Assembly: GCA_046735335.1 (NCBI GenBank)
Contig: JBKPTE010000046.1
Span: 32,080 to 96,079 of the forward strand
Direction of reading: 5' to 3'
Origin: Acidobacteriota bacterium
Lineage (GTDB): Bacteria > Acidobacteriota > Vicinamibacteria > Vicinamibacterales > 2-12-FULL-66-21
Length of the DNA: 64,000 nt
Made by a program: the position numbers and the translations under genes. Positions within the stretch are counted from its first letter, which is position 1. The number at the start of each line of letters is the position of its first letter. The notes below the pieces were generated by a model that saw only the letters and a program-made list of their open reading frames with translations, did not search any database and was not told where the DNA came from. Below are positions 8,906 to 35,121 of this stretch, piece by piece.

Positions 8906-8946
8906 GGTTGGAGGTTGGTTGTTGGAGGTTGGTTGTTGGATGTTGG
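8906..8946. repeat. tandem 14-nt repeat GGAGGTTGGTTGTT x2.6
   Basis: Identical copies at 8910..8923 and 8924..8937, then GGATGTTGG. Lies in the divergent mfd / PEP-CTERM spacer. No inverted partner seen nearby. Confidence 0.85.
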
Positions 8947-17613: not shown

Positions 17614-18165
17614 TCACTCAGCCCCAGCGATCAAACTTTCCTTCATCTTCTCCAGCTGCGTCACGACGCTGCCGTCGTAGACCGTGCTTCCGAGCTTCGC
17701 CACAACGCCGCCGATGATCGCGGGATCCACCCGTGCCTTCAACGTGACGCGTCGTCCGGTGATGCGTCCGAGGCTCTCTTCGAGCGCCCGCAGCCGTGCG
17801 GCATCCAGCGGCACGGCGGTCGTGACGCCGCCGCGAATCACCTTCTGATGTTCCAGCAGGCGGTCGTCGTACGCGTCGGCCAGATCGGGCAACAGCAACA
17901 GGCGGTCGCGATCGGCGAGCAGCAGCAGCAGCTTCGCGAGCGGCGACGACACGGGCCCCGCCTTGTCGAGAAGCGCCTTCACGAGGCCATGCTTGCGTGC
18001 GGCGGGGATTGCGGGATTGCCAACGATGTTCCAGAGCGCCTCGTTCCCGCGCACGAGATCGGCGAATTGCCGCAGCTCCCCCTGGACCGGCTCCGCCGAT
18101 CCTTCCGCGAGCGCGACGTCGAACAACGCTCGCGCGTAGCGTTTCGCCGCCGCCCGGGCGGTCAT
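17614..18165 (-). CDS. atpH: F1 ATP synthase delta (OSCP) subunit
   Basis: From ATG 18165: [22 protein letters not shown]... ...[33 protein letters not shown] overlap with the atpF stop. Confidence 0.9.
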
Positions 18166-18839
18166 TGCGCGCCTCCGGCGATCTGCGAGGCGTAACGATC
18201 CACGAGCCGCGCCTGATCTTCCGGAGTCATCGTCTGCTTGATGCGATCGGACGCGACGGAGACGGCAAGCGTCGCGGTCTGTTCCAGGATCTGCCGCCGC
18301 GCCACGCGGTAATGCATCTCGATCTCGCGTCGGGTGTGCGCGAGCAGCCGCTGGCGCTCGGCCTCCGCGGCCTGTTCGATGCGCTGGCGCTCGGCCACGA
18401 TCTCCTCGGCCCCTCTCGCCTTGAGGGTCTCGAGCTCCGATGGCAGCGACTGCAGCTTCGCCTGAATGCCTGCGAGACGCCGGGATGCTTCCTCCCGCGT
18501 GGCGGCCGCGGCCACGAGGTCTTCGCGGACGCGCGAGATCCTCGACGAGAGGTACGTCGCGATCGGCGATTTCAGGAAGTACGCGAGCACGGCGACGAGC
18601 ACCGCGAAGTTGAAGATCTTCGCGATCGTCGCGAGCCACCCGGATCCGTGTTCCTCGCCTTCTTCGGACGGGTGAGCGGGTGCGGATGCGTGTGCCTCGA
18701 CGGGTGCGGATGCCGCTTCGTGCGGCTGTTGGGCGGTCACGCGTGCCGCGAGGGGAAGCGCAAAAACGAGCAACAGAATCGCGCACACCCACGCACACCC
18801 GCGCGCGGCGATTCGGCCAGAGGAAGGGTCGGATCTCAT
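18162..18839 (-). CDS. atpF: Fo ATP synthase b subunit with N-terminal signal-like extension
   Basis: From ATG 18839: signal-like MRSDPSSGRIAARGCAWVCAILLLVFALPLAARVTA, then a His/Glu/Ala-rich stretch, a TM helix (IFNFAVLVAVLAYFL) and a long coiled coil. The track ORF is over-extended to 19184. Confidence 0.85.
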   Translation of the reverse strand: MRSDPSSGRIAARGCAWVCAILLLVFALPLAARVTAQQPHEAASAPVEAHASAPAHPSEEGEEHGSGWLATIAKIFNFAVLVAVLAYFLKSPIATYLSSRISRVREDLVAAAATREEASRRLAGIQAKLQSLPSELETLKARGAEEIVAERQRIEQAAEAERQRLLAHTRREIEMHYRVARRQILEQTATLAVSVASDRIKQTMTPEDQARLVDRYASQIAGGAQ

Positions 18840-18876
18840 CACGAACGGATCAGTCTTCAAGGAAAATGTCCGGGAT

Positions 18877-19302
18877 TCAGGACGCCCGCCGGCCCAGGAT
18901 TCGCTCGGCCGCGGCAGCGCCGAGCGTTTGCGCATCTTCGGCGAGCCGGCGCCGCGCCTCGGCCGCTTCCGCGTCGAGACGTTTGATGGCGTCGTCGACG
19001 GCCGCCTCCGCCTGCGCGCGCGTCTCGGCGACGATCTCGGAACGCCGCGCGAGCGCCGACTTCCGCATCTCGTCCATCTCGCGATAGATCTCCGCGCGCG
19101 CCGCCGTGGTCTTCCGATCGAACTCGTCGGCCGCCGCCTGCGCCTCGGTCGCCGACCGCTGCGCGAGCGCGCGCGCCGATTCAATCGCCTCTTCGCGCTT
19201 GCGAATGACGCCCAGCACGGGCCGGAGCAGCAGCCGATCGATGACGACCGTCAGCACCAGCACCAGCACGATGACCCAGAAGACGGACAGATTGGGAAGC
19301 AC
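18877..19302 (-). CDS. atpF2: Fo ATP synthase b' subunit (second b-type stalk protein)
   Basis: GTG start. One TM helix (VFWVIVLVLVLTVVI) followed by LLRPVLGVIRKREEAI and an Ala/Glu/Arg-rich coiled coil. Confidence 0.8.
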   Translation of the reverse strand: MLPNLSVFWVIVLVLVLTVVIDRLLLRPVLGVIRKREEAIESARALAQRSATEAQAAADEFDRKTTAARAEIYREMDEMRKSALARRSEIVAETRAQAEAAVDDAIKRLDAEAAEARRRLAEDAQTLGAAAAERILGRRAS

Positions 19303-19362
19303 GGGGCGTCAGCAGACCTCGATCATCCAGCCGCACCTCTCGCGGCGTAGACAAAACATCAA

Positions 19363-19392
19363 TTTATACCATCATGGAGGGCGCCCTCTCAA
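19363..19392 (-). promoter_or_regulatory. candidate sigma-70-type promoter of the atp block (TTGAGA-N18-TATAAA)
   Basis: The minus strand reads TTGAGAgggcgccctccatgatggTATAAA. The perfect 12-bp palindrome GAGGGCGCCCTC (19377..19388) begins inside the -35 hexamer and extends into the spacer. About 55 nt upstream of the atpF2 GTG. Confidence 0.35.
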
Positions 19393-19394
19393 GC

Positions 19395-19439
19395 TTGTCG
19401 GGCACCTCTTTCATTGTCGGGCACCTCCTTGGAGGTGCC
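19395..19439. terminator. candidate selD terminator hairpin with duplicated 5' arm
   Basis: TTGTCGGGCACCTC at 19395 and 19414. GGCACCTC-CTTG-GAGGTGCC hairpin (8 bp) at 19420..19439, 15 nt past the selD stop. No U-tract. Confidence 0.4.
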
Positions 19440-19453
19440 TCAGAGCAGACGTC

Positions 19454-20488
19454 TCACCGCAGGCGCACGGCGTAACTCCCCCGGGGCGTCACCTCGCCGA
19501 CAACCCAGGCGCCCGCGCCGGCGGCGGACAGTGCCGCCGTCGCCTCCGGCAGCGCTGACGCGGCGATCGCCGCAAGCAGACCGCCGGAGGTCTGGGGATC
19601 GAACAGCACCTGGACGCGACGCGGATCGCCCCCGTGGTCGATGGCAACGCCGCCAGCAAAATGCTCGCGATTCGTGCGCCCGCCGCCGGGCGTGTTGCGC
19701 TCGACCAGATCCAGCACGGCTGGAAGGAGCGGAACGCTGTCGACGTCGATTTCGATCGAGCAGCCGCTCGCGTTGGCGATCTCCGTCGAATGGCCAATGA
19801 GCCCGAAGCCGGTGATGTCCGTGCACGCGTGCACCGCGTCCGGGGCAAGGTCGGCCAGCGCTTCGGCCGCGGCACGGTTCAGGGTCGTCATGATCTGAAT
19901 CGCCGCGTCGACCGCGTCGGCAGGCGCGCGTTCGAACTTGATGGCGGTGGCGATCACGCCGGTGCCGACAGGCTTCGTCAGCACGAGGCGATCGCCTGGC
20001 TGTGCCCCCGCATTCGTCCAGATGCGATTCGGATCGATCTCTCCGGTGACGGCGTACCCGAACTTGATTTCCGGATCCTGAACGGTGTGGCCGCCAAGGA
20101 GCGCGACGCCTGCAGCCTGCAGGACCTGGAGACCGCCGCGAAAGATGTCTCCCAGGAGCGCCGGATCCGCATCCTTCGGAAACCCGGCGATCGCGAGCGC
20201 CGTCAACGGCCGTCCGCCCATCGCGTAGACGTCGGACAACGCATTTGCCGCCGCAATCCGTCCGTACGTCAACGCATCGTCGACCACGGGCGTGAAGAAA
20301 TCGACCGTCTGCACCAGGGCGCGCGTTTCGTCCAGCCTGTACACACCCGCATCGTCCGCGGTGCGGTAGTCGACCAGCACGCGGGGATCGGACGGGACGG
20401 TCAGGGCGCCCAGCACCTGGGCGAGCTCGCCGGCGGCGAGTTTGCTCGCTCAACCAGCGCAGGCGGCGTAATCGGTAAGACGTTTCAT
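19454..20488 (-). CDS. selD: selenide, water dikinase (selenophosphate synthetase), selenocysteine-containing form
   Basis: Track ORF (19454..20416, GTG start) lacks the essential N-terminal loop. The upstream in-frame reading is ATG(20488) KRLTDYAACAG-TGA(20452..20450)-ASKLAAGELAQ. The TGA aligns with Cys17 and the following K with Lys20 of E. coli SelD (GAGCGCK). The rest of the protein is collinear with SelD (TDITGFGLIGH etc.). Confidence 0.88.
20407..20423 (-). promoter_or_regulatory. candidate bacterial SECIS hairpin
   Basis: mRNA CGCCCAG-GUG-CUGGGCG (7 bp), starting 27 nt after the UGA, with G/U in the apical loop. Alternative small hairpins lie nearer the UGA (GCGAG-CAAA-CUCGC; CUCGCC-GCC-GGCGAG). 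Not folded computationally. Confidence 0.4.
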
Positions 20489-20504
20489 TGGTTTCTTCGC
20501 TGTC

Positions 20505-20682
20505 GGTTCACAAGGTTCACGGGGTTCACAGGGTTCAGGGCTGGGTTCTCAGAGTTCCTGGTTCTCAGGTTCTTTGGTTCGCAGGTTCTCGGTTCGCAGC
20601 CCACGAACCCTGAAGAACCGATGAACCGCTGCGAACCCATGAACCCAGCCCTGAACCGCGTGAACGCCGTGAACCCCGAACC
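20505..20682. repeat. tandem-unit inverted repeat filling the parB-selD spacer (GGTTC x10 then GAACC x8)
   Basis: GGTTC at 20505, 20514, 20523, 20532, 20544, 20560, 20568, 20576, 20584, 20591. Centre GGTTCG-cagccca-CGAACC at 20591..20609. GAACC at 20605, 20615, 20623, 20633, 20641, 20653, 20671, 20678. A 17-nt exact complement pair: 20532..20548 with 20641..20657. Confidence 0.9.
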
Positions 20683-20688
20683 GCGGCT

Positions 20689-21540
20689 CTACGAATCAGT
20701 GAATCTCTCGTAGAGCCGCTGCAACTCCTCTTCGTTCCCGAAATCGATCTCGATCCGTCCGCCTTTGCCCTTGCGGACAATCCGGACGCGAGTGCCGAGC
20801 GAGAGCCGCAGCTTCTCTTCGGCGGCGCGCGTATGAACGTCCTTCACGGGCTCCGCTTTCGGCGCGGACGGCTGCTGCGCCTTGCGGATGCGCTCTTCCG
20901 TCTCGCGCACCGACAGATTCGCCGACGCGATGTCGCGCGCGAGCTGCAGCAGTAGGCCCTCGTCGGCGAGCCCGAGCAGCGCGCGCGCGTGTCCCATCGA
21001 CAACACGCCCGACGCGACGCTGGTGCGGATCTCCTGCGGCAGCCGGAGCAGCCGAAGGTAGTTCGCGATCGAAGAGCGATCCTTGCCCACGGCGTCCGCG
21101 ATCTCTTCCTGCGTGAGGTGGTAATCGTCCGCGAGGCGCCGGTACGCCTGCGCCTCTTCGATGGGATTCAGGTCCTGCCGCTGAATATTCTCGATGAGCG
21201 CCACCGCGAGCAGCCGGTCGTCGGGAATGTCACGCACGACGATCGGCACTTTGAGCAGGCCGGCGTGCTGGGCGGCCCTCCAGCGGCGCTCGCCCGCGAC
21301 GATCTCGTAGCTGCCGTCGACGCGGCGCACGACGATCGGTTGAATGATGCCGTTCGACCGGATGGAGCGAGACAGTTCCTCGATGCGCTCCTCGTCCATC
21401 TGCGTGCGCGGCTGAAAGCGATTCGGGCGCAGGAGATCGGTGTCGATCTCGAGCGCGCGCTCCGGCGGCGCACTGGGCAGGGGAGCATCGGGGATGAGCG
21501 CACTGAGTCCGCGGCCGAGGGCAGGACGTTTGTCAACCAT
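20689..21540 (-). CDS. parB: chromosome partitioning protein ParB
   Basis: From ATG 21540: MVDKRPALGRGLSALIP..., IVAGERRWRAAQHAGL, HTH LTQEEIADAVGKDRSSIANYLRLLRLP. Overlaps the parA stop by 8 nt. Confidence 0.95.
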   Translation of the reverse strand: MVDKRPALGRGLSALIPDAPLPSAPPERALEIDTDLLRPNRFQPRTQMDEERIEELSRSIRSNGIIQPIVVRRVDGSYEIVAGERRWRAAQHAGLLKVPIVVRDIPDDRLLAVALIENIQRQDLNPIEEAQAYRRLADDYHLTQEEIADAVGKDRSSIANYLRLLRLPQEIRTSVASGVLSMGHARALLGLADEGLLLQLARDIASANLSVRETEERIRKAQQPSAPKAEPVKDVHTRAAEEKLRLSLGTRVRIVRKGKGGRIEIDFGNEEELQRLYERFTDS

Positions 21541-22339
21541 GCTGAGGCTCCGGTGCTGCGGCCGCGCTCTCGCGGGCGAGCAGCTCGCGCGCGAGCGCGA
21601 GGTACGCCTCGGCGCCGCGCGATTTGACGTCGTAGAGGATGGCAGGGAGGCCGTGGCTCGGCGCTTCACCCAGCCGGATGTTGCGCGGAATCACCGTGGA
21701 GAAGACGCGATCCTGAAAGAACTCGCGGATGTCGCGCGCCACCTGCTGCCCCAGGTTCGTCCGCTCGTCGTACATCGTCATCAACACGCCGGCGATGTCG
21801 AGCGACGGGTTGAGCGCGCCGCGCACGCGCCGCAGCGTCGCCACGAGATCGGCGAGGCCTTCGAGCGCGAAGTACTCGCAGTTGAGCGGAATCAGCACGG
21901 CGTCCGCGGCGACGAGCGCATTCAACGTGAGGAGTCCGAGGGATGGGGGCGTGTCGATGAAGATGAAATCGAAGCGGTCGCGCAACGGCGTCAGCACGTC
22001 GCGCAGACGCCGCTCGCGATTCGTCATCGTGACGAGCTCCACCTCGGCGCCGGTGAGATTGCGATCGGCCGGCACCAGCGACAGCCCCTTGACGGAAGTT
22101 TCGAGGACGAACGCCGCGGGATCCTCGGCCGGCTCGGACCTCGTGAGCGCCTCGTACACGGTGCCCGCCTCGGATGCGCGCCCCTTGAGGCCGAATCCGC
22201 TCGTGAGGTTCCCCTGCGGGTCCATGTCGACGGCCAGGACCTTCTGCTTCGCCATCGCGAGCGCCGTCGCGAGGTTGATCGCGGTGGTCGTCTTGCCGAC
22301 GCCGCCTTTCTGATTTGCGACCGCGAATGTCCGACTCAT
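21533..22339 (-). CDS. parA: chromosome partitioning ATPase ParA/Soj
   Basis: Deviant Walker A AVANQKGGVGKTTTAINLA; IFIDTPPSLGLLTLNAL. Confidence 0.95.
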   Translation of the reverse strand: MSRTFAVANQKGGVGKTTTAINLATALAMAKQKVLAVDMDPQGNLTSGFGLKGRASEAGTVYEALTRSEPAEDPAAFVLETSVKGLSLVPADRNLTGAEVELVTMTNRERRLRDVLTPLRDRFDFIFIDTPPSLGLLTLNALVAADAVLIPLNCEYFALEGLADLVATLRRVRGALNPSLDIAGVLMTMYDERTNLGQQVARDIREFFQDRVFSTVIPRNIRLGEAPSHGLPAILYDVKSRGAEAYLALARELLARESAAAAPEPQHG

Positions 22340-23025
22340 TTGGTTATTCGACCAAATATGTTTGGCTGCTCTGATGTTCCACGTGGAACACTGCCGACGA
22401 CCTTGGCGAGCACCATCAGGCTACTTTGGTTGGCCGGGACAAGAGGATACCTCCCTACCTGACGTAAGGTCGAGGGGTAATCAGTGCGTTCCAATCTCTG
22501 AGATGCACCGAGGAAGAGCGCAACCCGGGATTGTCCCGTTACCGCGCCAGCGATGAGCTTCCAGCTATCGGGACCAAGCCGAACAGCCCGCGCCGAGATC
22601 ACCGTGGGCGATGGTAGTTGCGTTTCCCTCAGCACGTCGTCAAACCGCGCGGCTTCCACACGCGCCTGCAGGCCGAGTTCTCGGACAGCCTCGCGCAGAA
22701 ACGCCGCCTTCCGTGTTCGCGCCTCGATCATTTGAAGGCTAACGGCGCCAGACGCCAGCGCCAGGGGAATGGCAGGAGAGCCTCCGCCCGATCCCAGGTC
22801 AACCATGCTGGGGCCGCGGGGTAAGTGTGCAGCCGCCGCAACCGGTTCGAGCAGGAGCCGGTCAATCGCGGCGTCCGGCTCATCAAGAGAAGTGAGGTTG
22901 ATGACGGTGTTCCAGCGCGTGAGGAGCGCGTAGTACGCGAGCAAGCGCTCGACCAGCACGTCTGAAAGTGTCAGGTGTGCCGCCCCGGCACGGGCGTTGA
23001 ACCGGCCGCGGACTTCCTCGTCCAT
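22336..23025 (-). CDS. rsmG: 16S rRNA (guanine527-N7)-methyltransferase
   Basis: From ATG 23025 (the track ORF is over-extended to 23460). SAM motif VDLGSGGGSPAIPLAL. Sits in the conserved position between mnmG and parA. Confidence 0.9.
   Translation of the reverse strand: MDEEVRGRFNARAGAAHLTLSDVLVERLLAYYALLTRWNTVINLTSLDEPDAAIDRLLLEPVAAAAHLPRGPSMVDLGSGGGSPAIPLALASGAVSLQMIEARTRKAAFLREAVRELGLQARVEAARFDDVLRETQLPSPTVISARAVRLGPDSWKLIAGAVTGQSRVALFLGASQRLERTDYPSTLRQVGRYPLVPANQSSLMVLAKVVGSVPRGTSEQPNIFGRITK
22375..22390. promoter_or_regulatory. parS: parS centromere-like site TGTTCCACGTGGAACA
   Basis: Perfect 16-bp palindrome that differs from the common parS TGTTTCACGTGAAACA only by a symmetric T>C/A>G pair. 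Lies 36 nt upstream of the parA start, inside the rsmG 3' tail. Confidence 0.8.
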
Positions 23026-23030
23026 CTGGT

Positions 23031-24833
23031 CTATCGGTTCAGCCGGGCGGCAATCAAGGCGACGGCCGCCGGCGTGACGCCGGGTATTCGGCTGGCCTGG
23101 CCAAGCGTTTCCGGCCGAACGGCCGCGAGCCGCTCGACCATCTCCCTGGACAGGCCCGGAACTCCCCGATACGTGAACGTCGCCGGAATGCCGCGCGACT
23201 CCTGCTTCCGAAGCCGGTCGACGACGGTTAGCTGCCGGCGGAGATAGCCGGCGTAGCGAAACTCGGTTTCGAGCGTGGCCAGATCGATGTGGTGGCGGAT
23301 CTCGAGCGGTAGCGACCTGGCAATCCGGTCCACGTCCATACCCGGCCGCGCCATCGCTCGCGCCGCGCCGATGCGAATCCCGTCGACGACGACTGATGAC
23401 CGGCGGATCGTCTCGATGTTCCGCTCGAAACGCGTGCGGCGATCGACGAACGCCTCCCAACGGGGGTCGTCCACGAGACCCGCGCGGCGGCCCTGCGGTG
23501 TCAACCGCAAGTCCGCGTTGTCGGTCCGGAGCAGAAGGCGATGCTCGGCCCGCGACGTGAACATGCGGTACGGCTCGAGGCAGCCTCTCGTCGTGAGGTC
23601 ATCGACCATGACGCCGATGTAGGCTTCATCTCGGCCGAGGACGAGCGGATCCCGTCGGCGAACCGCCAGCGCCGCGTTGATGCCCGCCATGAGACCCTGA
23701 GCGGCCGCCTCCTCGTAGCCCGACGTGCCGTTGATCTGGCCAGCCAGAAACAAGCGACCTACCCGGTGGGTTTCGAGCGTCCGGCGCAGTTCCGTCGGCT
23801 GAATGAAATCGTATTCGACGGCGTACCCGGGCCGAAGCATCTCCGCGTCTTCCAGGCCGTTCATCGCGCGAACGACGTCCATCTGCACGCCGGCCGGCAG
23901 GCTCATCGAAAGACCGTTGACGTAGATTTCGGCCGCGTCGAGTCCCTCGGGCTCCAGGAAGATCTGGTGCCGCTCCCGGTGCGGGAACCGCATGATCTTG
24001 TCCTCGAGCGACGGGCAGTACCTCGGCCCGATGCCGGAGATCTGGCCGTTGTACAGCGGCGACTGACCGATGTGCGCCCGGACGAGGTCGTGGACACGCT
24101 CGGTCGTGTGGAGCAGGTGACAGGAGATCTGCGGACGATCGATCGCTTCTGTCAGAAAGGAGAAGGGAACCGGCGGGTCGTCCCCTCGCTCCTCCTGGAA
24201 CCGCGAAAAGTCGATGCTGCGGCGATGGAGCCGCGGAGGCGTCCCGGTCTTCAGCCGGCCCCACTCGAAACGGAACGACTTCAGCGATTCGGAGAGATCC
24301 CGTGAGGGTGGTTCGCCGGCGCGCCCCGCCGGCCGCTGCTCCGGACCGATGTGAACGAGGCCGTTGAGGAACGTGCCGGTCGTGACGATCAGCGCGTCGC
24401 AACCGTACGTGTCGCCGTCCTCCAGCGCGAGTCCGCGGACGCGGCCCTGTTGCACGAGGACCCGCCCCGCCTTACCGATGATCCATGAGAGATTGGGAAG
24501 CTCCTCGAGTGTCGCGCGGACCCAGCGGCCGTACTCGCGCTTGTCGGCCTGCGCACGCGGGGACCAGACGGCAGGACCGCGGCTCCGGTTCAGCAGCTTG
24601 AACTGGATGCCCGTGGCGTCGATGGCGAGCCCCATAATCCCGCCGAGCGCGTCGATTTCCCGAACCAGATGCCCCTTCGCCGTGCCGCCGATGGCGGGGT
24701 TGCACGGCATCTGCGCGACGGTGTCGCGGGACAGCGTGCAGACGGCCACGTCACATCCCATGCGCGCGGCGGCCCATGCGGCTTCGACCCCCGCGTGCCC
24801 GGCACCGATGACGATGATCTCGTGGCGCCGCAT
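23031..24833 (-). CDS. mnmG: tRNA uridine 5-carboxymethylaminomethyl modification enzyme MnmG (GidA)
   Basis: FAD motif [13 protein letters not shown]. 600 aa collinear with GidA, with the C-terminal ...[15 protein letters not shown] motif. Confidence 0.97.
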
Positions 24834-24851
24834 TGATGACTTACGTATGTC

Positions 24852-26195
24852 CTATTTGCCGATGCAGAACCGCTCGAAGATCGTGCGCAGCACCTCGTCC
24901 GGCGCGCGCGCGCCGGCGACGTCGTCGAAGCACGCGCGCGCCTCGTGCAGGTCCGCGAGCACCAGCTCCTCGGGCCGGCCTTCAGCCGCCGCAATCGCCG
25001 CACGCGCGATCGCCTCCTTCGCGCGAAGGAGCAGCGAGGCGTGCCGGACGTTCGCGATCGCGGGACGATCTCGTCCGGGCGACGGCGCAATCGTCTGTGT
25101 CAGCGCGGCGCGCAGCGCGTCGATGCCTTCGTCCGTCAACGACGAAACGGACAGCGCGCCGGCGTCCTCGCTCCGCCATGCGGCCGGCAGGTCCGACTTG
25201 CTCGCAACGATCACGCGCGCGCGATTGCGCGTCTCGCTCAGGAGCGATCTATCGATGTCGGAGAGCGGCTCGGAGCGATCCAGAACGACGAGCACCACAT
25301 CCGACGCAGCCGCCGCCTGACGTGCGCGCGTCATGCCTTCTTCTTCGATCGCATCGTCCGATGACTCGCGGAGGCCGGCGGTGTCGACGAGCGTCATTGG
25401 AACTCCGCCGATGTCGACGCGCTCCGTGACGAGGTCGCGCGTCGTTCCCGGCACGTCCGTCACGATGGCCCGCGCGGCGCCAATCAGCCGGTTGAACAGG
25501 CTCGACTTTCCAGCGTTCGGCCGCCCCGCGATCGCAACGGTGAGGCCCTCGCGAATGAGCCGGCCGCGAGCCGCGTCCGCCAGCAGCACGTCGAGATCGC
25601 CGGCAAGACTCACCAGCTCCGCTGATGTGCCGTTCGGGTCGCTGAAGTGATAGCCCTCTTCGGGAAAATCGAGTGACGCTTCGAGCGGCGCGATCGCGTC
25701 GAGCAACCGTGCGTCCAGCGCGCGCAGACGCCCGGTCAGCGTCCCTTCGAGTTGATCGAATGCAAGGCGCGCCTGCGCCGGTGTCACGGCATCGATGAGA
25801 TCGGCCACCGCTTCGGCCTGCACCAGATCGATTCGGCCGTTCAAATAGGCGCGCAGCGTGAACTCGCCAGGATTCGCCAGCCGCGCACCACCGCTCAGTG
25901 CCGCTCGAACGATCTGCTCGAGGATCGTCGGGCTGCCGTGCGCCGAGATTTCGACGAGGTCGTCGCCGGTATACGACCGCGGGCCCGGGAAGAACGTCAC
26001 GATGACCTCGTCGAGCGGACAGCCGTCGTGGTCGTGCACGTGCGCGAACGTCGCGAGGCGCGGCTCGACGGAGGCTCGACCCGTCAGCGCGCACGCGATA
26101 CTCGCCGCCACCGGCCCGCTCAGGCGGACGATGCCGATGGCCCCCCGGCCTGGGGGAGTCGCGATGGCCACGATTGTGTCGGCTGGCGAAAACAC
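24852..26195 (-). CDS. mnmE: tRNA modification GTPase MnmE (TrmE)
   Basis: GTG start. G1 motif GRPNAGKSSLFNRL, DTAGLR, and the C-terminal FCIGK tetrapeptide. Confidence 0.95.
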   Translation of the reverse strand: MFSPADTIVAIATPPGRGAIGIVRLSGPVAASIACALTGRASVEPRLATFAHVHDHDGCPLDEVIVTFFPGPRSYTGDDLVEISAHGSPTILEQIVRAALSGGARLANPGEFTLRAYLNGRIDLVQAEAVADLIDAVTPAQARLAFDQLEGTLTGRLRALDARLLDAIAPLEASLDFPEEGYHFSDPNGTSAELVSLAGDLDVLLADAARGRLIREGLTVAIAGRPNAGKSSLFNRLIGAARAIVTDVPGTTRDLVTERVDIGGVPMTLVDTAGLRESSDDAIEEEGMTRARQAAAASDVVLVVLDRSEPLSDIDRSLLSETRNRARVIVASKSDLPAAWRSEDAGALSVSSLTDEGIDALRAALTQTIAPSPGRDRPAIANVRHASLLLRAKEAIARAAIAAAEGRPEELVLADLHEARACFDDVAGARAPDEVLRTIFERFCIGK

Positions 26196-26354
26196 GGTTC
26201 TCGGGTTCTCTCGGGTTCTCAGGTTCTCAGGTTCTCGGGTTCTCAGGTTCTCGGGTTCTCAGGTTTCTCGGGTTCTCGGGTTCTCAGGTTCGAGAGGATC
26301 CCCGAACCCCCGAACGTGAGAACCTGAACCTGAGAACCTCAGAACCTTGGAACC
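26196..26354. repeat. tandem-unit inverted repeat filling the jag-mnmE spacer (GGTTCTCR x11-12 then GAGAACC-type x6)
   Basis: GGTTC at 26196, 26204, 26214, 26222, 26230, 26238, 26246, 26254, 26271, 26279, 26287 (GGTTTC at 26262), mostly on an 8-nt period. Centre GGTTCG-agaggatccc-CGAACC at 26287..26308. GAACC at 26304, 26320, 26326, 26334, 26342, 26350. Confidence 0.95.
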
Positions 26355-26366
26355 ACACAATTCAGG

Positions 26367-26816
26367 TTATCGCCGGCTGGAGATGATGACCGTCTTCAAG
26401 TACGCGTCGCCGATGCTCTCGGACGTCATCTGCGGATCTTCCGCGACGGTGAGGTGGACGAGCCGGCGGCAGTACGGATTTAGAGGCCCCATTTCCTGCG
26501 GCGAGCCGGACGTTCGCGCCTTCTCCATCATGAAGCGCGCCATCTGCCGCAGCTCGGCATCCTTGGCCTTGCGGTAATCCATGCAGTCGACGACGAAGCT
26601 GCGGTCGTCCTTCAACTCGCGGCGGAATCCCGTGTTGACGATTTGCTGCAGCGCATCGAGCGCCTCCGCCTTCCGGCGCAGCAGAATCTCGCCCCCCTCG
26701 CCGGATAGATCGATGCGAATCGCGTCTAGCGTGTCCTCCACGCGCACGTCGAGCGGTAGTTGCATCGCGGACAGGACGTCTTTCATGAAGGCGGCGACCT
26801 TGTGCTGCACGTCCAT
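26367..26816 (-). CDS. jag: RNA-binding protein Jag/KhpB (KH + R3H domains)
   Basis: Conserved position after yidC. R3H-type C-terminus LNPYCRRLVHLTVAEDPQMTSESIGD. Start is ATG 26816 (sharing its A with the yidC TGA) or GTG 26819. Confidence 0.85.
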   Translation of the reverse strand: MDVQHKVAAFMKDVLSAMQLPLDVRVEDTLDAIRIDLSGEGGEILLRRKAEALDALQQIVNTGFRRELKDDRSFVVDCMDYRKAKDAELRQMARFMMEKARTSGSPQEMGPLNPYCRRLVHLTVAEDPQMTSESIGDAYLKTVIISSRR

Positions 26817-28540
26817 CACTCGCGCTCCTTCGCTTGATCCGTCCGGCCGCTCCCGGCCTTCTTAATCCGTCGCTCCGCAGGCGGGCGCACGGTCCGCTGC
26901 TGCATCGGTCCGATCAGCCTGTTCGTGATCATCTGCTGCCCGATACCCCAGAGGTTGCTCACCGTCCAGTACAGCAGGAGACCGCTCGACCACCAGAGCG
27001 ACATCCCGGCGAGGACGACCGGCATGACCAGCATCATCTTCTGCTGCATCGGGTCGGCGGTCGTGGGCGTCATCCGCTGCTGGAAGAACATCGTCGCGCC
27101 CATGAGCACGGGAAGCACGTAGTACGGATCGGGCGCGACCAGATCGTGAATCCAGAGGATGAACGGCGCGCCGCGCAGCTCGATGGCGACGGCGAGCAGC
27201 GAGTAGAACGCGAACAGCACGGGGAACGTCAGCAGCATTGGGACGCAGCCGCTTGCGGGGTTGACGCCGCGCTCCCGATAGAGGTTCATCAGCTCGACGT
27301 TCATCTTCGAACGCGCGGGATCGCTCATCTTGAGCTTCGCGTAGCGATCCTGAATGGCTTTCACCTCGGGCTGAATCTCCTGCATCTTGCGCATGGAAAC
27401 CACGCTCTTGTGCCGGAGCGGGAACATCGCGAGATTGATCAGCACCGTGAGGATGATCACGGACCATCCGTAGTTGCCGACGAACCCGTTGATCCACTTG
27501 AGCGCGCGCAGCAGGGGGACGGCGAGCCACGCAAACATGCCGAAGTGGATCGCGCGGACGAGGTTGCGATCCACCGAGGCAAGGACGTCGAAATCCTTCG
27601 GCCCGAGGAAGAACGTCGCGTCCGTGGGCGGCGACGGGAACACCATCCACCAGCGGACGAAGTGGGCGCCCTCCGGATTCGACGGCATCTGGACGTTGAG
27701 CGGCTGGTACTCGACGCGAACGGGCGTCTTCGGCGCGACGAGCGCGTCCAGGAAGTAGTGGTCGTCCACGCCGACGAATCCGAACGTGCCTTCCTGGACG
27801 GCCTGCGCCGGAATCTTGTCCTGCGAGACGCGCGTGACGCTGCCGTCCTTGTAGAAGATCGGCTGGGAGGGGGGATTGTAGCTGCGCGAGTGCGGCACGA
27901 GGCCGCCGCCCAGCGACGGACCGCCGTGCACCGTGAAGCTCACGGGCTGGCCCGCGCGCGTCACGGACGCGGAGAACACGAGGACGTACGGCTGCGCGGC
28001 GGAGAGGACGAATGTCTTGTGCGCTTCGAGCCCGCCGGCGCCGCGGAAGTCCAATCGCAGCGTCTGCTGGCCTTGTTCGACGTGAAGGGCGTCGGCGCTT
28101 GCCGTGAAGCTGCCGTTCTCCAGCTCGTTCGAAAGCGCGGCATCCTGCACGCTCAACGTGAACGGCAGCGGCACGTCCGCGCCCACCGTCTGCGGGACGA
28201 GCTCCAGGGTGGCCCCTGCCGTATCGCGATACGTCTTCAGGCGCCAGCTCTTGAGCGCGCCGCCTCTCGTGGTGAATGTCGCGCGCACGTACGCGTTGTC
28301 CACGGTGATATCACGCCCCTCGATCGACGGTGCGCTGGCGGGCACGGGCGTCGCCGGCCGCTGCGTGGACGGCGCAGGCGGCGGCGATGAAGCCGGTGCG
28401 GCCGGATTCCCTGGCTGCGCGGCGGCGCCCGACGCCGGCGTTCTGGCCGCCGGCTGCTGCGGCTTGGACGGCAGAAGGAACTGGAAGCCTGCGATGACCA
28501 GGAACGAGAGGACGACGAACAGCAGAACGTTGCGCTGCAT
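26816..28540 (-). CDS. yidC: membrane protein insertase YidC
   Basis: From ATG 28540: N-terminal TM helix, large periplasmic domain, then a conserved core (YGWSVIILTVLINLAMFPLRHKS...MQEIQPEVKAIQDRY...GCVPMLLTFPVLFAFY). Confidence 0.95.
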   Translation of the reverse strand: MQRNVLLFVVLSFLVIAGFQFLLPSKPQQPAARTPASGAAAQPGNPAAPASSPPPAPSTQRPATPVPASAPSIEGRDITVDNAYVRATFTTRGGALKSWRLKTYRDTAGATLELVPQTVGADVPLPFTLSVQDAALSNELENGSFTASADALHVEQGQQTLRLDFRGAGGLEAHKTFVLSAAQPYVLVFSASVTRAGQPVSFTVHGGPSLGGGLVPHSRSYNPPSQPIFYKDGSVTRVSQDKIPAQAVQEGTFGFVGVDDHYFLDALVAPKTPVRVEYQPLNVQMPSNPEGAHFVRWWMVFPSPPTDATFFLGPKDFDVLASVDRNLVRAIHFGMFAWLAVPLLRALKWINGFVGNYGWSVIILTVLINLAMFPLRHKSVVSMRKMQEIQPEVKAIQDRYAKLKMSDPARSKMNVELMNLYRERGVNPASGCVPMLLTFPVLFAFYSLLAVAIELRGAPFILWIHDLVAPDPYYVLPVLMGATMFFQQRMTPTTADPMQQKMMLVMPVVLAGMSLWWSSGLLLYWTVSNLWGIGQQMITNRLIGPMQQRTVRPPAERRIKKAGSGRTDQAKERE

Positions 28541-28547
28541 GGACGAA

Positions 28548-28799
28548 TCAATTCGACGAAGCCGGTTCCTTCGGGGCGCGCGCCGGAACCGGATCGAGCC
28601 CGGACCCGCCGAGAGGGTGACACCGCGCGAGCCTGCGCAGCGCGAGCAGTCCGCCCCGCAGCGCGCCGTGCATCCGGACGGCATCCGCGGCGTAGACGGA
28701 GCAGGAGGGCACGAAGCGGCACGCGCCCCCAGTCATCGACGCCAAGGTCAACTGATACAATCGGATAGCGCCAAGCGCCAGTCGCGCGCTGATCGTCAT
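28548..28799 (-). CDS. yidD: membrane protein insertion efficiency factor YidD
   Basis: From ATG 28799: ...[53 protein letters not shown] overlap with the rnpA stop. Confidence 0.85.
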
Positions 28800-29176
28800 T
28801 TGTCGGCTGGGCGCCGGCAGCGCCGCAGCGTGGCCCGGAAGTCCTCCTGGACGGCGGACCACCGGGCATCGAGCAGGGCGGGCTTCGGGATCACGACGAG
28901 ATCGAGCGCGGGCCGGGATGGGGCTTCCGTTCTGAAGACTTCTCGGATCAGGCGTTTCGCGCGATTTCTCACGACGGCGCCCCCCAGCCGGCGCGAGGCG
29001 ACGATGCCGAGGCGCAGGACCTCGCGGCGGTCGGTGTCGTTGTTCACGGCGCGGTCACCGGAGGACGCGATGATCGTGAAATATCGGCCATGAACTCTGC
29101 GACCGGTGTCGAATACCCGCTGGAACTCGGTACGGCGGCGCAGCCGGCGGGCGCGGGGCAGGGTCAGGGATGGCAT
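28796..29176 (-). CDS. rnpA: ribonuclease P protein component
   Basis: [23 protein letters not shown]...[27 protein letters not shown]. Conserved position after rpmH. Confidence 0.85.
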
Positions 29177-29231
29177 GGATGACGCCGGGCGGTCCGAACC
29201 GCCTCCCGGACTGCCGATGTTGCGGTCCTCT

Positions 29232-29378
29232 TCAGCGGGACGTCGAAACGGTCAGGCGCTTTCGCCCCTTGGCGCGACGTCGCTTGAGCACGAGCCGCCC
29301 GTTTTTCGTGCTCATGCGCACGAGGAACCCGTGCGTGCGCTTCCGGTGCCGCCGATTCGGTTGATACGTCCGCTTCAT
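29232..29378 (-). CDS. rpmH: 50S ribosomal protein L34
   Basis: Not in the ORF track (48 aa). The minus strand translates to [48 protein letters not shown], stop TGA 29234..29232. Confidence 0.92.
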
Positions 29379-29424
29379 GATGATGCCAGCCTGCCGCGAA
29401 TGTCGCGCAAAGGGAGAAACCCAA

Positions 29425-29454
29425 ATACTAGCGAAGCGGGAAGAGTCCTGTCAA
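29425..29454 (-). promoter_or_regulatory. candidate rpmH promoter TTGACA-N18-TAGTAT
   Basis: The minus strand reads TTGACAggactcttcccgcttcgcTAGTAT, 46 nt upstream of the rpmH ATG. Confidence 0.45.
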
Positions 29455-29478
29455 TTCAGGCCCGGAAAATAAGGGCGT

Positions 29479-29508
29479 TTGTCACACTCGAAAACGCTAT
29501 GCTACAGT
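29479..29508 (+). promoter_or_regulatory. candidate dnaA promoter TTGTCA-N18-TACAGT
   Basis: Back-to-back with the rpmH promoter. The DnaA-box trio lies 36-67 nt downstream of the -10 element. Confidence 0.35.
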
Positions 29509-29543
29509 CCGTTCCCCGCGCGCGGTTGGGTCAGCCCCCGAAG

Positions 29544-29575
29544 TTTTCCACAGGTGTGGAAAAAAATGTGGAAAA
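29544..29575. promoter_or_regulatory. cluster of three perfect DnaA boxes (TTTTCCACA)
   Basis: TTTTCCACA at 29544..29552 (+). TGTGGAAAA at 29555..29563 and 29567..29575 (-). All match the TTWTNCACA consensus. Confidence 0.75.
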
Positions 29576-29690
29576 ACCCGGAGGCGAAGGTCGGAAACCC
29601 CTTGTAACTGGCGGCGAAAAATAAGAGCTGGGCGGCCGGCCGCCGTGGGAACAGGGTTCGCTGAAGGCGAAAGGTCCCGGAATCGTAATC

Positions 29691-31022
29691 ATGACGGGCA
29701 CTAATCTCTGGGATCAGGTCCTCTCCCGGATCGAAACCAAGGTCAACCGGCACAGCTTCTACACGTGGTTCAAGCCGACCGCGTACGTCGACGAGCGTGA
29801 CGAAGCGGTCCGCGTACGGGTGCCGAATGCGCTGTTTCGGGACTGGCTGACGAAGCACTACTCGGCCGTCATTCAGGAGGCGCTTGCCGAGCTGAATCAT
29901 CCGACGACCGCCGTATCGTACGTCACGGACGAGGCGCCCGCGGTCGTACCACCCGAACCGCCAGCGGTCGCCCTGCCCGAGCCCATCGAGGAAGCCGTCG
30001 AGGAGGGAGGGGCCCTCAGCGCCCGGTACTCCTTCGACACCTTCGTCGTCGGGCCCTCGAACCAGTTTGCGCACGCCGCCTGCCGGGCGGTCGCGGAAGC
30101 GCCGTCGCGTTCCTACAATCCGCTGTTCATCTACGGCGGGGTGGGGCTCGGCAAGACGCACCTGATGCACGCGATTGGGCACTACCTGGTGAACCATCTC
30201 AAGAACCTGAAGCTGACATACATCTCGTCCGAGCGCTTCATGAACGAGATGATCAACGCCGTCCGCTACGATCGCGTCCTCGACTTCCGCGAGCGTTATC
30301 GCAGCGTCGACGTGCTGCTCGTCGACGACATTCAGTTCCTCGCGGGCAAGGAAGGCACGCAGACCGAGTTCTTCCACACGTTCAACGCCCTGTACGACTC
30401 GCAGAAGCAGATCGTCATCAGCAGCGACTGCCCGCCGCACGAGATCCCGCAGCTCGAGGAGCGCCTGCGTTCGAGGTTCGAATGGGGCCTGATCGCCGAC
30501 ATCCAGGCGCCGGATCTCGAGACGAAGACGGCAATCCTGAAGAAAAAGGCGGAAACGGAAGGGATTCCGCTCCCGGACAACGTCGCGATCTACATCGCGG
30601 GCAAGATCAAGTCGAACATCCGCGAGCTCGAAGGATCGCTCATCCGGCTCATCGCCTACGCGTCGCTCACCGGCCGTGAGATGTCGCTGCCGCTCGCGCA
30701 GGACGTGCTGCGCAACGTCCTGCAGAACGACGAAAAGGCGATCACGATCGAGATCGTCCAGAAGGCGGTCGCCGACTACTACCAGCTGAAGCTCGCCGAT
30801 CTGAAGTCACGCAACAACTCGAAGTCGGTCGCGATGCCGCGCCAGATCGCCATGTATCTGTGCAAGACGCTCACGAACGCGTCGCTTCCGGAGATCGGCA
30901 AGAGCTTCGGCGGCAAACATCACTCGACCGTCATACACTCCATTCGCAAGATCGAAGATCTCCGGCAGCGCGAGGGAGATTTCAACACCCTCATCAACAA
31001 CTTCATGGAGTCGTTTCGCTGA
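29691..31022 (+). CDS. dnaA: chromosomal replication initiator protein DnaA
   Basis: GGVGLGKTHLMHAIG, DDIQFLAGKEGTQTEFFHTFN, and a C-terminal DNA-binding domain (HSTVIHSIRKIE). Confidence 0.97.
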   Translation: MTGTNLWDQVLSRIETKVNRHSFYTWFKPTAYVDERDEAVRVRVPNALFRDWLTKHYSAVIQEALAELNHPTTAVSYVTDEAPAVVPPEPPAVALPEPIEEAVEEGGALSARYSFDTFVVGPSNQFAHAACRAVAEAPSRSYNPLFIYGGVGLGKTHLMHAIGHYLVNHLKNLKLTYISSERFMNEMINAVRYDRVLDFRERYRSVDVLLVDDIQFLAGKEGTQTEFFHTFNALYDSQKQIVISSDCPPHEIPQLEERLRSRFEWGLIADIQAPDLETKTAILKKKAETEGIPLPDNVAIYIAGKIKSNIRELEGSLIRLIAYASLTGREMSLPLAQDVLRNVLQNDEKAITIEIVQKAVADYYQLKLADLKSRNNSKSVAMPRQIAMYLCKTLTNASLPEIGKSFGGKHHSTVIHSIRKIEDLRQREGDFNTLINNFMESFR

Positions 31023-31033
31023 GGCGAACGGCG

Positions 31034-31260
31034 TTTTCCACAGCACCCGCCGCATCCCGGCTGTGGACGTCCTGTGCGCGCTGTCCGGGGTCCGAAACCT
31101 CAACAGGAACCGCCTGAAATCCCCTCCGCGGACCCACCGATCCTTCCACAAGCTAAGTAACAGATTTTCAAGGACCTACGGCTGATATTTCGCTTTTCAA
31201 CAGCACCTCTTTCTTGTTATAATTCTTTGTTCCGGTTTCTCTCCCTATTTTCTGAGATCA
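31034..31260. other. oriC: candidate oriC segment: DnaA boxes plus AT-rich unwinding region in the dnaA-dnaN spacer
   Basis: Perfect box TTTTCCACA at 31034..31042. Degenerate boxes: TGTGGAC 31062..31068, CCTTCCACA 31142..31150, TTTTCAACA 31194..31202. Region 31141..31260 is 47/120 = 39% G+C by hand count. Confidence 0.5.
31215..31223 (+). promoter_or_regulatory. extended -10 element TGtTATAAT (candidate dnaN promoter)
   Basis: TGTTATAAT lies 43 nt upstream of the dnaN ATG, inside the AT-rich island. No convincing -35 element. Confidence 0.3.
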
Positions 31261-31265
31261 CCACT

Positions 31266-32381
31266 ATGGAACTGGTCGTCCGCAAGACCGATCTGCTGCG
31301 CGAACTTCAGCTCTTCCAGGGCATCGTCGAGCGCAAGAACACGATCCCCATCCTCGCGAACGTGCTGCTCGAAGCCAACGGCGAGGAAGTGAAGATGCTG
31401 GCGACCGATCTCGAGGTCGGCCTGCGCAGCCGCTGCACGGCGAACGTGTCCAAGGGCGGATCGCTCACGCTGCCGGCGAAGAAGCTCTACGAGATCGTGA
31501 AAGCGCTGCCGGAGACGGACGTCCGGATCGAGGAAGACAAGGGGGGCGTGAAGGTCGCAGCCGATCGGTTCGACTCGCGCATGCAGACGCTGCCGCGGGA
31601 AGACTTTCCGTCGCTGCCCGAGGCGAGCGGCACCTACAGTGCGACGCTGCCGCGCGACGTGCTGCGGCAGATGGTTTCGAAGACGCAGTTTGCCATCACC
31701 GGCGAAGACACGCGGTATTTCCTGAACGGCGCGCTGTTCATCCTGCGTCCCGACTCGATGAGCCTCGTGTCGACCGACGGCCATCGCCTCGCGCTCATCA
31801 CGGTGCCGCGCGAGACGGGCAGGAAAGGCAAGCCGGAAGACGACGTGCGGGTGATCCTCCCGAGGAAGACGCTCCTCGAGCTGGGACGCCTGCTGACGGA
31901 AGGCGAAGGACCGATCCAGTACGAGCGCGGCGAGAACCATCTGTTCTTCGACATCGGCGGACGGCTGTTGATCTCGCGCATGATCGACGGCCAGTTCCCC
32001 GCGTTCGAACGCGTGATCCCGAAGAGCAACGACAAGCGCGTCGAGTTCGATCGCGATCGGCTGACCAGCGCCGTCAGGCGCGTGGCGCTGCTGTCGAACG
32101 AGCGGTCGCGCGCGGTGAAATTCCAGATCGACAAGGGCAAGGTCGAGATCGCCTCGAGCAGCCCGGAGTTCGGCGAGGCCAAGGAAGTGCTGATGGTCGA
32201 CTACGCGGCCGCGCCGGTCACGATCTGCTTCAACGCGCAGTACGTGCTCGACTTTCTCGGTGTGGTCGAGACGGACATCGTATCCCTCGAGTTCAAGGAC
32301 GAAATGAGCCAGGCCGTGATGAAGCCGGTTGGCGCCGAGGGCTACGAATACACGTACGTGATCATGCCGATGCGCATCTGA
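31266..32381 (+). CDS. dnaN: DNA polymerase III beta sliding clamp
   Basis: From ATG 31266: MELVVRKTDLLRELQLFQGIVERKNTIPILANVLLEA... ...YVIMPMRI. The track ORF starts 13 codons earlier at a TTG. Confidence 0.95.
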   Translation: MELVVRKTDLLRELQLFQGIVERKNTIPILANVLLEANGEEVKMLATDLEVGLRSRCTANVSKGGSLTLPAKKLYEIVKALPETDVRIEEDKGGVKVAADRFDSRMQTLPREDFPSLPEASGTYSATLPRDVLRQMVSKTQFAITGEDTRYFLNGALFILRPDSMSLVSTDGHRLALITVPRETGRKGKPEDDVRVILPRKTLLELGRLLTEGEGPIQYERGENHLFFDIGGRLLISRMIDGQFPAFERVIPKSNDKRVEFDRDRLTSAVRRVALLSNERSRAVKFQIDKGKVEIASSSPEFGEAKEVLMVDYAAAPVTICFNAQYVLDFLGVVETDIVSLEFKDEMSQAVMKPVGAEGYEYTYVIMPMRI

Positions 32382-32390
32382 CCTGACTGA

Positions 32391-35035
<2,645 letters not shown>

Positions 35036-35036
<1 letters not shown>

Positions 35037-35116
35037 TGAATTGGTGAACTCGTGAATCGGTGAATCGAAATTCACCAACTCAATTCACCAACTCACCAAT
35101 TCACCAACCCACCAAT
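35036..35116. repeat. tandem-unit inverted repeat filling the gyrB-gyrA spacer (GTGAAYNN x4 then YYCACCAA x5-6)
   Basis: GTGAA at 35036, 35044, 35052, 35060 (8-nt period). Centre GGTGAAT-CGAA-ATTCACC at 35059..35076. YYCACCAA at 35071, 35084, 35092, 35100, 35108. Ends 5 nt before the gyrA ATG. Confidence 0.9.
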
Positions 35117-35121
35117 TACAG

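Follow-up and report, generated by a model that had tools for sequence, protein, structure and literature searches.

The spacer between parB and selD in a 64,000-nucleotide stretch of DNA from an Acidobacteriota bacterium of the order Vicinamibacterales (GenBank assembly GCA_046735335.1, contig JBKPTE010000046.1, positions 32,080 to 96,079; hereafter the window) is filled by an array of short GGTTC units followed by an array of their complements, GAACC. By comparison of sequences, this element belongs to a dispersed, hypervariable family of intergenic inverted arrays with a GGTTC core, which is common in metagenome-assembled genomes (MAGs) of Vicinamibacterales. The family is a variant of the inverted short-unit arrays of simple sequence repeats (SSRs) known from Xanthomonas. 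It is apparently undescribed, and our literature search yielded nothing relevant on arrays of GGTTC or on repeats of Vicinamibacterales, which are abundant soil bacteria that have hardly been studied experimentally. Membership in the family is much more certain than any role at the RNA level. The parB-selD element is called el1 below, and two other elements of the window, in the jag-mnmE and gyrB-gyrA spacers, are called el2 and el3 (Table 1).

Ten exact GGTTC cores in el1 (20505-20682, 178 nt), starting at 20505, 20514, 20523, 20532, 20544, 20560, 20568, 20576, 20584 and 20591 (spacings 9, 9, 9, 12, 16, 8, 8, 8 and 7 nt), precede eight exact GAACC cores, starting at 20605, 20615, 20623, 20633, 20641, 20653, 20671 and 20678. 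At the rate found in the rest of the window, 0.38 such pentamers would be expected by chance in 178 nt, as compared with the 18 present (Poisson P = 3e-24). The genes beside el1 all lie on the minus strand; read on this coding strand, the GAACC arm becomes a 5' arm of GGTTC units and the GGTTC arm a 3' arm of GAACC units. A repeat finder placed the 17-nt exactly complementary block (Table 1) within a 35-nt pair of arms that are 91% complementary, and Tandem Repeats Finder (TRF) gave periods of 8-9 and 3.7-7.1 copies per arm. A first-pass annotation had described el1 as an imperfect hairpin of about 180 nt made of GGTTC units and their complements; all of its coordinates and counts (cores, spacings, centre and 17-nt block) proved correct on recomputation, its extent from 6 nt after the parB stop codon to 16 nt before the selD ATG agrees with the gene coordinates, and the hairpin itself is borne out by folding and by the detection of the arm pair. 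A 10-bp stem, GGCTCTACGA...TCGTAGAGCC (20683-20715, minus strand), covers the last codons and the stop of parB and is kept, with changes, in the related loci L124, L126 and L127; it may extend el1 outwards or form a small hairpin of its own.

The thermodynamic advantage over shuffled sequence, which the same annotation had made the test of its hairpin, is large for el1 (z about -10). Its coding (minus) strand folds as RNA at -117.4 kcal/mol (dinucleotide shuffles, -70; z = -10.0) and its plus strand at -120.4 kcal/mol (shuffles, -67; z = -11.3), and none of 200 shuffles was as good in either case; as DNA, el1 folds at -66 kcal/mol versus -33 for shuffled sequence (z = -9.9). When whole units were permuted within the arms, the observed energy of el1 (-110.1 kcal/mol) compared with -94.8 +/- 7.6 (z = -2.0, 6 of 300), and el2 showed no excess stability (z = -0.15). 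Because this permutation keeps most of the folding energy, the stability of el1 comes mainly from a GGTTC array lying opposite a GAACC array, and the mirrored order of the units adds little. Pairing between the arms is mostly core to core, the linkers being mirrored in neither order nor length and complementary as a class only (57-62%), and the arm sizes of paired arrays correlate loosely (r = 0.69). Single arms fold as DNA at only -1.7 to -5.8 kcal/mol, GGTTC arms no better than GAACC arms, and folding as weak as this gives no support to an origin in which the GGTTC arm snaps back and pairs with itself by G-T pairs.

The pattern of four GGTTC cores spaced 7-9 nt was searched for across 185,579 species genomes, and at least 118 stretches match it, against about 10 expected by chance on our own estimate. 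About 36 among the matches listed are Vicinamibacterales or other Acidobacteriota MAGs, and the others listed include Desulfobacterales, Bacteroidota, Bdellovibrionota, Chloroflexota, Actinomycetota, cyanobacteria and others (taxon labels are those of the record titles). IMG/VR viral contigs contain 115 further GGTTC stretches. The additional GGTTC-type arrays that the first-pass annotation had told its readers to look for are therefore many, in species genomes and viral contigs alike. The loci numbered with an L are fixed 8-kb tiles, some of which cut an array off at the tile end, and genes in them were called with a simple heuristic based on G+C content at third codon positions. In the Acidobacteriota DNA of the matches listed, 48 of 49 GGTTC elements are intergenic and the arrays stand directly beside gene ends. 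Elements are found between co-directional, convergent and divergent genes and are dispersed over the chromosomes; one lies 3.76 Mb into a genome of 5.2 Mb. The units are mostly 7-9 nt long, with a mode of 8, and one linker type tends to be shared within a genome (three times each in L008 and L076, twice in L048, and in L036/L099 and L060/L098).

In every case in which a GGTTC array and a GAACC array lie no more than 150 nt apart, and are thus counted as paired, the GGTTC array precedes the other: Acidobacteriota give 13:0, other bacteria among the matches listed 4:0 and viral contigs 13:0, or 30:0 in total. The element is a palindrome and shows this order on either strand, so that neither the direction of replication nor that of transcription can as such account for the polarity. 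Pairs of arrays with other units in these genomes also have the G-rich arm first. Three control cores matched in composition and scanned in the viral collection with an identical search geometry, GGTCT, GTGTC and GGCTT, gave 49, 45 and 82 stretches as compared with 115 for GGTTC; their convergent/divergent pairs number 0/0, 0/1 and 0/1, a total of 0/2 among 176 stretches, versus 13 GGTTC pairs among 115. In arms that had no role in selection, cores deviate at 3.6% per position, mostly at the first G, whereas linker positions 6 and 7 deviate from the majority of their array at 24% and 33%; the cores are thus about 7-9 times better conserved than the linkers. That the family as a whole is constrained is shown by its conserved core, its 30:0 polarity and the core specificity of its pairing; the constraint could come from a trans-acting factor that reads GGTTC or from the mode of propagation.

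All 12 viral hairpins examined are intergenic, the thirteenth pair (L239) being an identical copy of another (L232). Arrays in the viral hairpins reach the apex, and the tip is a truncated GGTT-loop-AACC. The viral contigs (L130-L244, 38-59% G+C) carry compact GGTTC...GAACC hairpins of 3-5 units per arm (e.g. 4521-4582 in L232, and 695-779 and 7326-7402 in L210); a ribosome-binding site of the GGAG type often follows directly, and in several the two arms differ in period (7 versus 8 nt). In the sister element el2, 5.6 kb from el1, the last unit of the 3' arm abuts the mnmE GTG start codon at 26195 and leaves no room for a separate Shine-Dalgarno region. A global alignment of el1 and el2 gives 69% identity, which is essentially the core alone; inner units of el1 and units of el2 have the form GGTTCTC[AG]. 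Of the relation to el2 that the first-pass annotation had drawn, the shared core and the differing suffixes stand; the shared central GGTTCG...CGAACC stem does not hold as a trait of the family, since loops between the arms range from 6 to >100 nt in other copies.

By hand tally, the sense strand of unpaired arrays is mostly GGTTC after stop codons (13:4) and mostly GAACC before starts (8:5), tendencies that suggest some constraint at the transcript level. As sites of Rho loading, for which the C-rich arm would be the candidate, they are not decisive: unpaired arrays with GGTTC and with GAACC in sense number about 12 to 8 by hand tally. TRF found 94 arrays of period 6-10 in 376 kb of the Acidobacteriota DNA, and among those with other units ATGGCAG, AGGCAATG and CAGGGTGCC also form pairs.

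The parB-selD spacers of relatives show how variable the element is. The element of the window is 178 nt long; in L127 (ParB 88% identical) the initial units are the same, and the contig then ends inside the array. L126 (89%) has about 65 nt with four GGTTC and one GAACC, L124 and L125 (91%) have degenerate arrays of 2+2, and L001 (90%) has a 113-nt hairpin of GGTTCC/GGAACC units; in L002 (78%) and L005 (79%) the spacer is about 20 nt long and carries no array. Without el1, the spacer of the window would be 22 nt long, similar to those of L002 and L005. The jag-mnmE spacers of the relatives, about 105 nt long, are unrelated to el2: there is a plain hairpin of unrelated sequence in L001, a hairpin built from GGCTCA/TGAGCC units in L002 and no obvious feature in L005. 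Because the orthologous spacers at these two loci differ in this way, the elements are, on this comparison, old enough to be common to close relatives, yet quick to change in size, unit type and presence; we infer that any single copy is dispensable. A metagenome scan with the junction between the parB stop and the array, GTAGAGSCGYGGTTCGGGGTTC, gave two unrelated coding matches only and no copies at the population level. The L127 contig ends within its array and the L001 contig ends 300 nt after its own, and arrays of this kind probably fragment short-read and metagenome assemblies.

Arrays of the heptamer GGGAATC in Xanthomonas and of GGGGA(C/T)T in Nostoc have been described by Rehm et al. 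2015 (PMC4692102), in a study centred on G-quadruplexes; the Xanthomonas heptamers are the one analogue of the GGTTC family that is well described. Each Xanthomonas genome has 70-75 pairs of convergent arrays on opposite strands, which are able to form stem-loops, and the heptamers are hypervariable between Xcc and Xac (PMC4692102). Like these heptamers, GGTTC arrays repeat a unit of about 7 nt in tandem, are strongly biased towards intergenic DNA, form convergent inverted pairs, carry the G-rich strand in sense after stops and in antisense before starts, and keep their position while varying greatly in length and sequence between close relatives. el1 itself has head-to-tail units of about 7 nt in at least 3-4 copies and two close convergent arrays with the G-rich one first, and it is intergenic, with its position kept and its length and sequence variable (178 nt to none). 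In contrast, the GGTTC core is without G-tracts, the units of el1 having GG only where G-quadruplexes take at least three G per unit, so that the G-quadruplex explanation cannot apply. The Xanthomonas unit is a fixed heptamer, whereas GGTTC units are 7-9 nt long with free linkers; the GGTTC hosts are Vicinamibacterales, several other phyla and viral contigs; and GGTTC elements are present between divergent genes, where the Xanthomonas repeats are under-represented.

Other families of short repeats are less similar. Long SSRs (Mrazek et al. 2007, as outlined in PMC4679880 and PMC4692102) and the short tandemly repeated heptamers of cyanobacteria likewise consist of short head-to-tail units and are enriched in large GC-rich genomes of non-pathogens; long SSRs are described as homogeneous, however, whereas the GGTTC arrays combine a conserved core with variable linkers and pair with a fixed polarity. 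TAACTGA direct repeats occur in marine Beggiatoaceae, cyanobacteria and Bacteroidetes, and a post-transcriptional role has been proposed for them (MacGregor 2015, PMC4679880). They too are short intergenic repeats within a few nucleotides of start codons, in spacers that lack a canonical Shine-Dalgarno sequence and in unrelated phyla, but they are a fixed heptamer and almost never inverted (169 direct sets and one indirect). REP, BIME and REPIN elements, as outlined in PMC3116915 and PMC3733652, resemble the GGTTC family as dispersed intergenic hairpins of inverted doublets with genome-specific variants and dispensable copies; in the same outline, REPs are imperfect palindromes of 20-40 bp, tagged with GTAG or CGTC and linked to RAYT (Y1) transposases, whereas GGTTC arms are untagged arrays of a 5-nt core, and by reading, neither tag is present in the arms of el1 and el2. 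The parS arrays of pSM19035 omega consist of direct and inverted units of the 7-bp type, 4-10 units per array, but are contiguous and local to the plasmid (PMC9499535), whereas GGTTC arrays are irregular and dispersed over chromosomes. Arrays for ribbon-helix-helix (RHH) proteins have at least four contiguous gap-free heptad units, in contrast to the spacings of 7, 8, 9, 12 and 16 nt in el1, and the genes beside el1 do not encode RHH proteins. CRISPRs have repeats of 23-47 nt with unique spacers of similar length, in contrast to units of 7-9 nt with linkers of 2-4 nt here. A cmscan search of 18000-37000 against Rfam (E <= 1) found nothing on el1 or el2, and on el3 only sub-threshold matches to plant miRNA precursors.

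The explanation that we prefer is that the arrays grow and shrink by replication slippage, the accepted mechanism of growth for SSRs with units of 5-11 nt (Mrazek et al. 2007, as represented in PMC4679880 and PMC4692102), and that el1 acts, if at all, on a transcript. el1 is probably transcribed within a parA-parB-selD message, because it begins 6 nt after the parB stop and is separated from the selD ATG by 16 nt with no recognisable promoter; from this lack of room and of a promoter-like site we infer that selD is read from upstream. In such a message, a stem-loop of about -117 kcal/mol would lie directly 5' of the putative selD ribosome-binding region, where it could serve, for example, as a processing site, a barrier to decay or a modulator of downstream translation. 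el1 does not behave as a canonical terminator: its stem on the coding strand is followed by GACAGCGAAGAAACCAATG, with no U-tract, and a scan of that strand for promoters and terminators found nothing resembling either within the element or next to it. The early and late mRNAs of phage T7 contain intercistronic RNase III hairpins, which have no repeated core and no known polarity rule; like el1, these are long, internally looped, placed between co-directional genes and followed by the next ribosome-binding site. Taken as a whole, we hold the scheme of slippage, co-transcription and transcript-level action to be a little short of probable.

Several observations weigh against it. The length of the hairpin is not conserved among relatives, and the order and length of the linkers are mirrored between the arms no better than in permutations. 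el1 without its flanks folds about equally well in sense (-111.1 kcal/mol) and antisense (-110.1 kcal/mol), and when flanks are included the antisense strand folds at least as well in el1, el2 and el3. Over 16 hairpins between co-directional genes, sense minus antisense averages +2 kcal/mol (nine less stable and seven more), so that a G-U versus A-C asymmetry of the kind expected from selection on sense RNA is absent from this set. Some elements lie between divergent genes, where transcription is not needed (L037, L057 and L064), and unpaired arrays (42) outnumber paired ones (13). In L008, two convergent GGTTCTG arrays about 465 nt apart share one spacer between co-directional genes (945-1526), and with arms as far apart as these the counts of unpaired arrays are overestimated. 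Finally, slippage alone leaves the contrast between core and linker, the absolute polarity and the GGTTC-specific pairing unexplained.

These three features would suit an alternative in which the arrays are binding sites for a putative trans-acting reader of GGTTC or GGUUC. With the array represented as (GGTTCTCA)n, a reader could bind double-stranded, operator- or centromere-like arrays, as RHH proteins do on contiguous 7-8-bp direct and inverted units, or it could bind single-stranded RNA or DNA, in which case occupation of the 5' GGUUC arm would release the 3' arm and the downstream start region. An invariant 5-nt core among varying linkers, a linker type specific to each genome, the presence of elements in intergenic regions of all types, divergent promoter regions among them, and the mnmE start codon abutting the 3' arm of el2 all agree with such a reader, and the 7-9-nt period with its direct-then-inverted layout resembles the heptad parS of pSM19035 bound by RHH-ParB (PMC9499535). 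However, the RHH system requires gap-free repeats, whereas the spacing in el1 is irregular (7-16 nt), and arrays that reach the apex of the hairpin would be needless for binding to double-stranded DNA. No gene for a candidate protein is found nearby, the neighbours of el1 encoding a helix-turn-helix (HTH) ParB and SelD, and the use of one core across phyla and viruses would demand a very widespread reader that has escaped description. We regard the reader as unlikely.

It is likewise improbable that the arrays are a functionless by-product of mutation, produced by slippage in the unconstrained spacers of a large GC-rich genome and occasionally copied into the inverse orientation by template switching. 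The extreme variation in size and presence between close relatives fits this explanation, as do the many other unit types in the same genomes, some of them paired (ATGGCAG, AGGCAATG, CAGGGTGCC and GTGAAT), and the spread of elements over co-directional, convergent and divergent spacers roughly as the numbers of such spacers predict; moreover, long SSRs with 5-11-nt units are abundant in large high-GC genomes (Mrazek 2007, to the extent that PMC4679880 and PMC4692102 relate it). But uniform mutation and slippage should not give 3.6% mismatch in the core and 24-33% in the linkers, should not yield a polarity of 30:0, should not pair GGTTC arrays (13 pairs in 115 viral stretches) while giving no convergent pair for three matched cores, and should not reuse one core across phyla. 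Nor do single arms self-fold as DNA, which leaves an origin by snap-back unsupported.

A non-autonomous mobile element, resembling a REPIN or a miniature inverted-repeat transposable element (MITE) with subterminal repeats, would account for a dispersed family with genome-specific variants, for presence or absence among relatives and for copies on viral contigs. In such an element the GGTTC cores would be putative transposase sites, whose orientation to the ends would set the fixed polarity, and unpaired arrays could be decayed halves; REPINs, as PMC3116915 sketches them, are also intergenic, hairpin-forming inverted doublets. This origin is very unlikely all the same. el1 and el2 have no distinct terminal inverted repeat, no target-site duplication (the flanks are TGGTTTCTTCGCTGTC before and GCGGCTCTACGA after el1) and no conserved termini in common, and the number of units differs from arm to arm and from relative to relative. 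At jag-mnmE the ancestral spacer has been replaced in full, together with its ribosome-binding region, and not interrupted, and no transposase gene was seen adjoining any copy, although no systematic search was made.

That el1 is a signal specific to its locus (a parAB terminator, a parS-like array for ParB, a regulatory element of selD or selenocysteine, or a Chi-like guard of a palindrome) is scarcely credible, in spite of its place immediately behind parB, close to the replication origin region and ahead of a selenoprotein gene, the resemblance of GGTTCAC/GTGAACC units to parS half-sites, and a G-rich-first layout in which, by our own reasoning, Chi sites would be oriented so as to protect the two ends of a break at the tip of the hairpin: the coding strand has neither a U-tract after the stem nor a terminator-like site, and selD has no room for a promoter of its own; the arrays are dispersed over the chromosomes; parS is a 16-bp palindrome near TGTTNCACGTGAAACA, and its sole match in the window (at most three mismatches) is at 22375-22390, outside el1; L002 and L005 keep parB-selD without the element; el1 lies upstream of the UGA codon and not downstream; and GGTTC/GAACC outside the arrays, at 26/32 to the left and 37/39 to the right of dnaA in these 64 kb, are about as frequent as mononucleotide composition predicts, neither over-represented nor skewed between replichores.

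The coordinates of el1, its neighbouring genes and the other short-unit arrays of the window are given in Table 1.

Table 1. Position of el1, its parts and neighbours, and of the other short-unit arrays in the window
Feature	Position	Strand	Description
selD	19454-20488	-	TIGR00476 at 360 bits; ATG 20486-20488
selD leader outside the array	20489-20504	-	16 nt; coding strand GACAGCGAAGAAACCA then ATG
el1 GGTTC arm	20505-20596	.	10 exact GGTTC and 1 degenerate AGTTC; linkers 2-7 nt
el1 block GGTTCAGGGCTGGGTTC	20532-20548	.	Exact complement of 20641-20657; main contributor to mirrored unit order
el1 apical loop cagccca	20597-20603	.	Closed by stem GGTTCG/CGAACC (20591-20609)
el1 GAACC arm	20604-20682	.	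8 exact GAACC and 1 degenerate GAACG
el1 block GAACCCAGCCCTGAACC	20641-20657	.	Partner of 20532-20548
parB	20689-21540	-	About 283 amino acids (homologues 283); stop codon 20689-20691, 6 nt from el1
el2 (sister element), jag(R3H)-mnmE spacer	26196-26354	.	11 GGTTC and 6 GAACC cores
el3, gyrB-gyrA spacer	35033-35117	.	Four GTGAATNG units, then ATTCACCA-type units
Tandem-only array	8906-8946		GGTTGGA x 5.9; spacer between divergent genes
Tandem-only array	39881-39958		GCGGGTGCGTC-like unit, periods 7, 13 and 20 nt; spacer between divergent genes

The relatives share the gene order that runs from yidC via parB to selD and the atp genes. ParB was identified by the Pfam domains ParB_N, HTH_ParB and ParB_C, and its homologues place the window in Vicinamibacterales. 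An exact-protein look-up found no record of the GTG-extended ParB open reading frame (ORF) of the window, because it differs from the called gene. At the rsmG/parA junction, the perfect palindrome TGTTCCACGTGGAACA (22375-22390) is two mismatches from the parS consensus and is likely to be the parS of this chromosome, as predicted from that match.

Codon 13 of selD (20450-20452, minus strand) is an in-frame TGA, in the motif AACAG-U-ASK. Because this TGA is common to the L001 and L002 orthologues and is replaced by TGT (Cys) in L005, SelD is here predicted to be a selenoprotein itself. ORF finders place the selD start too late, at 20416. The selD leader contains a GAGCGA(A/G)-like motif, which recurs in relatives and suggests a putative ribosome-binding region of selD. 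Downstream of selD and upstream of the atp cluster lies a conserved box, GGTATAAATTGATGTTTTGTC (19352-19372 of the window, minus strand; about 10000-10020 in L002 and L004), which is common to all relatives and looks like an extended -10 promoter. What separates selD from the box differs by lineage: in L004 eleven GAACCTGA units stand immediately before the box, and in the window there are a small hairpin and a duplicated AGGTGCCCGACAA.

The window has 22 spacers that are 60 nt or longer, and five of them carry short-unit arrays. el3 has an architecture like that of el1 with another unit (GTGAAT/ATTCAC), and it takes up its spacer from the gyrB-gyrA stop codon until only 4 nt remain before the ATG (35122); its antisense strand folds much better than its sense strand (-55 versus -29 kcal/mol).

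In the window, such arrays adjoin core genes, at parB-selD, jag-mnmE and gyrB-gyrA, and are present in roughly one spacer in four. In practice they break short-read assemblies, as in L127, and can mislead the calling of gene starts. The family has the architecture and rules of orientation of the Xanthomonas heptamers but no G-tracts, which argues that what needs explaining is the layout of inverted arrays itself, and not the quadruplex. The 30:0 polarity, the contrast between core and linker and the failure of control cores to pair are handles for finding a reader or a mechanism of propagation. As a speculation that we consider unlikely, GGTTC arrays may be the cis half of a widespread and so far unrecognised system, in which a trans factor or a mobilising enzyme reads GGTTC or GGUUC and the GGTTC-first layout acts as a switchable hairpin that gates the downstream gene. 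If so, the gated genes would include selD, mnmE and the phage genes whose ribosome-binding sites follow the 3' arm, and hundreds of spacers in each Vicinamibacterales genome, together with those in other phyla and phages, would come under one regulatory or propagation logic.

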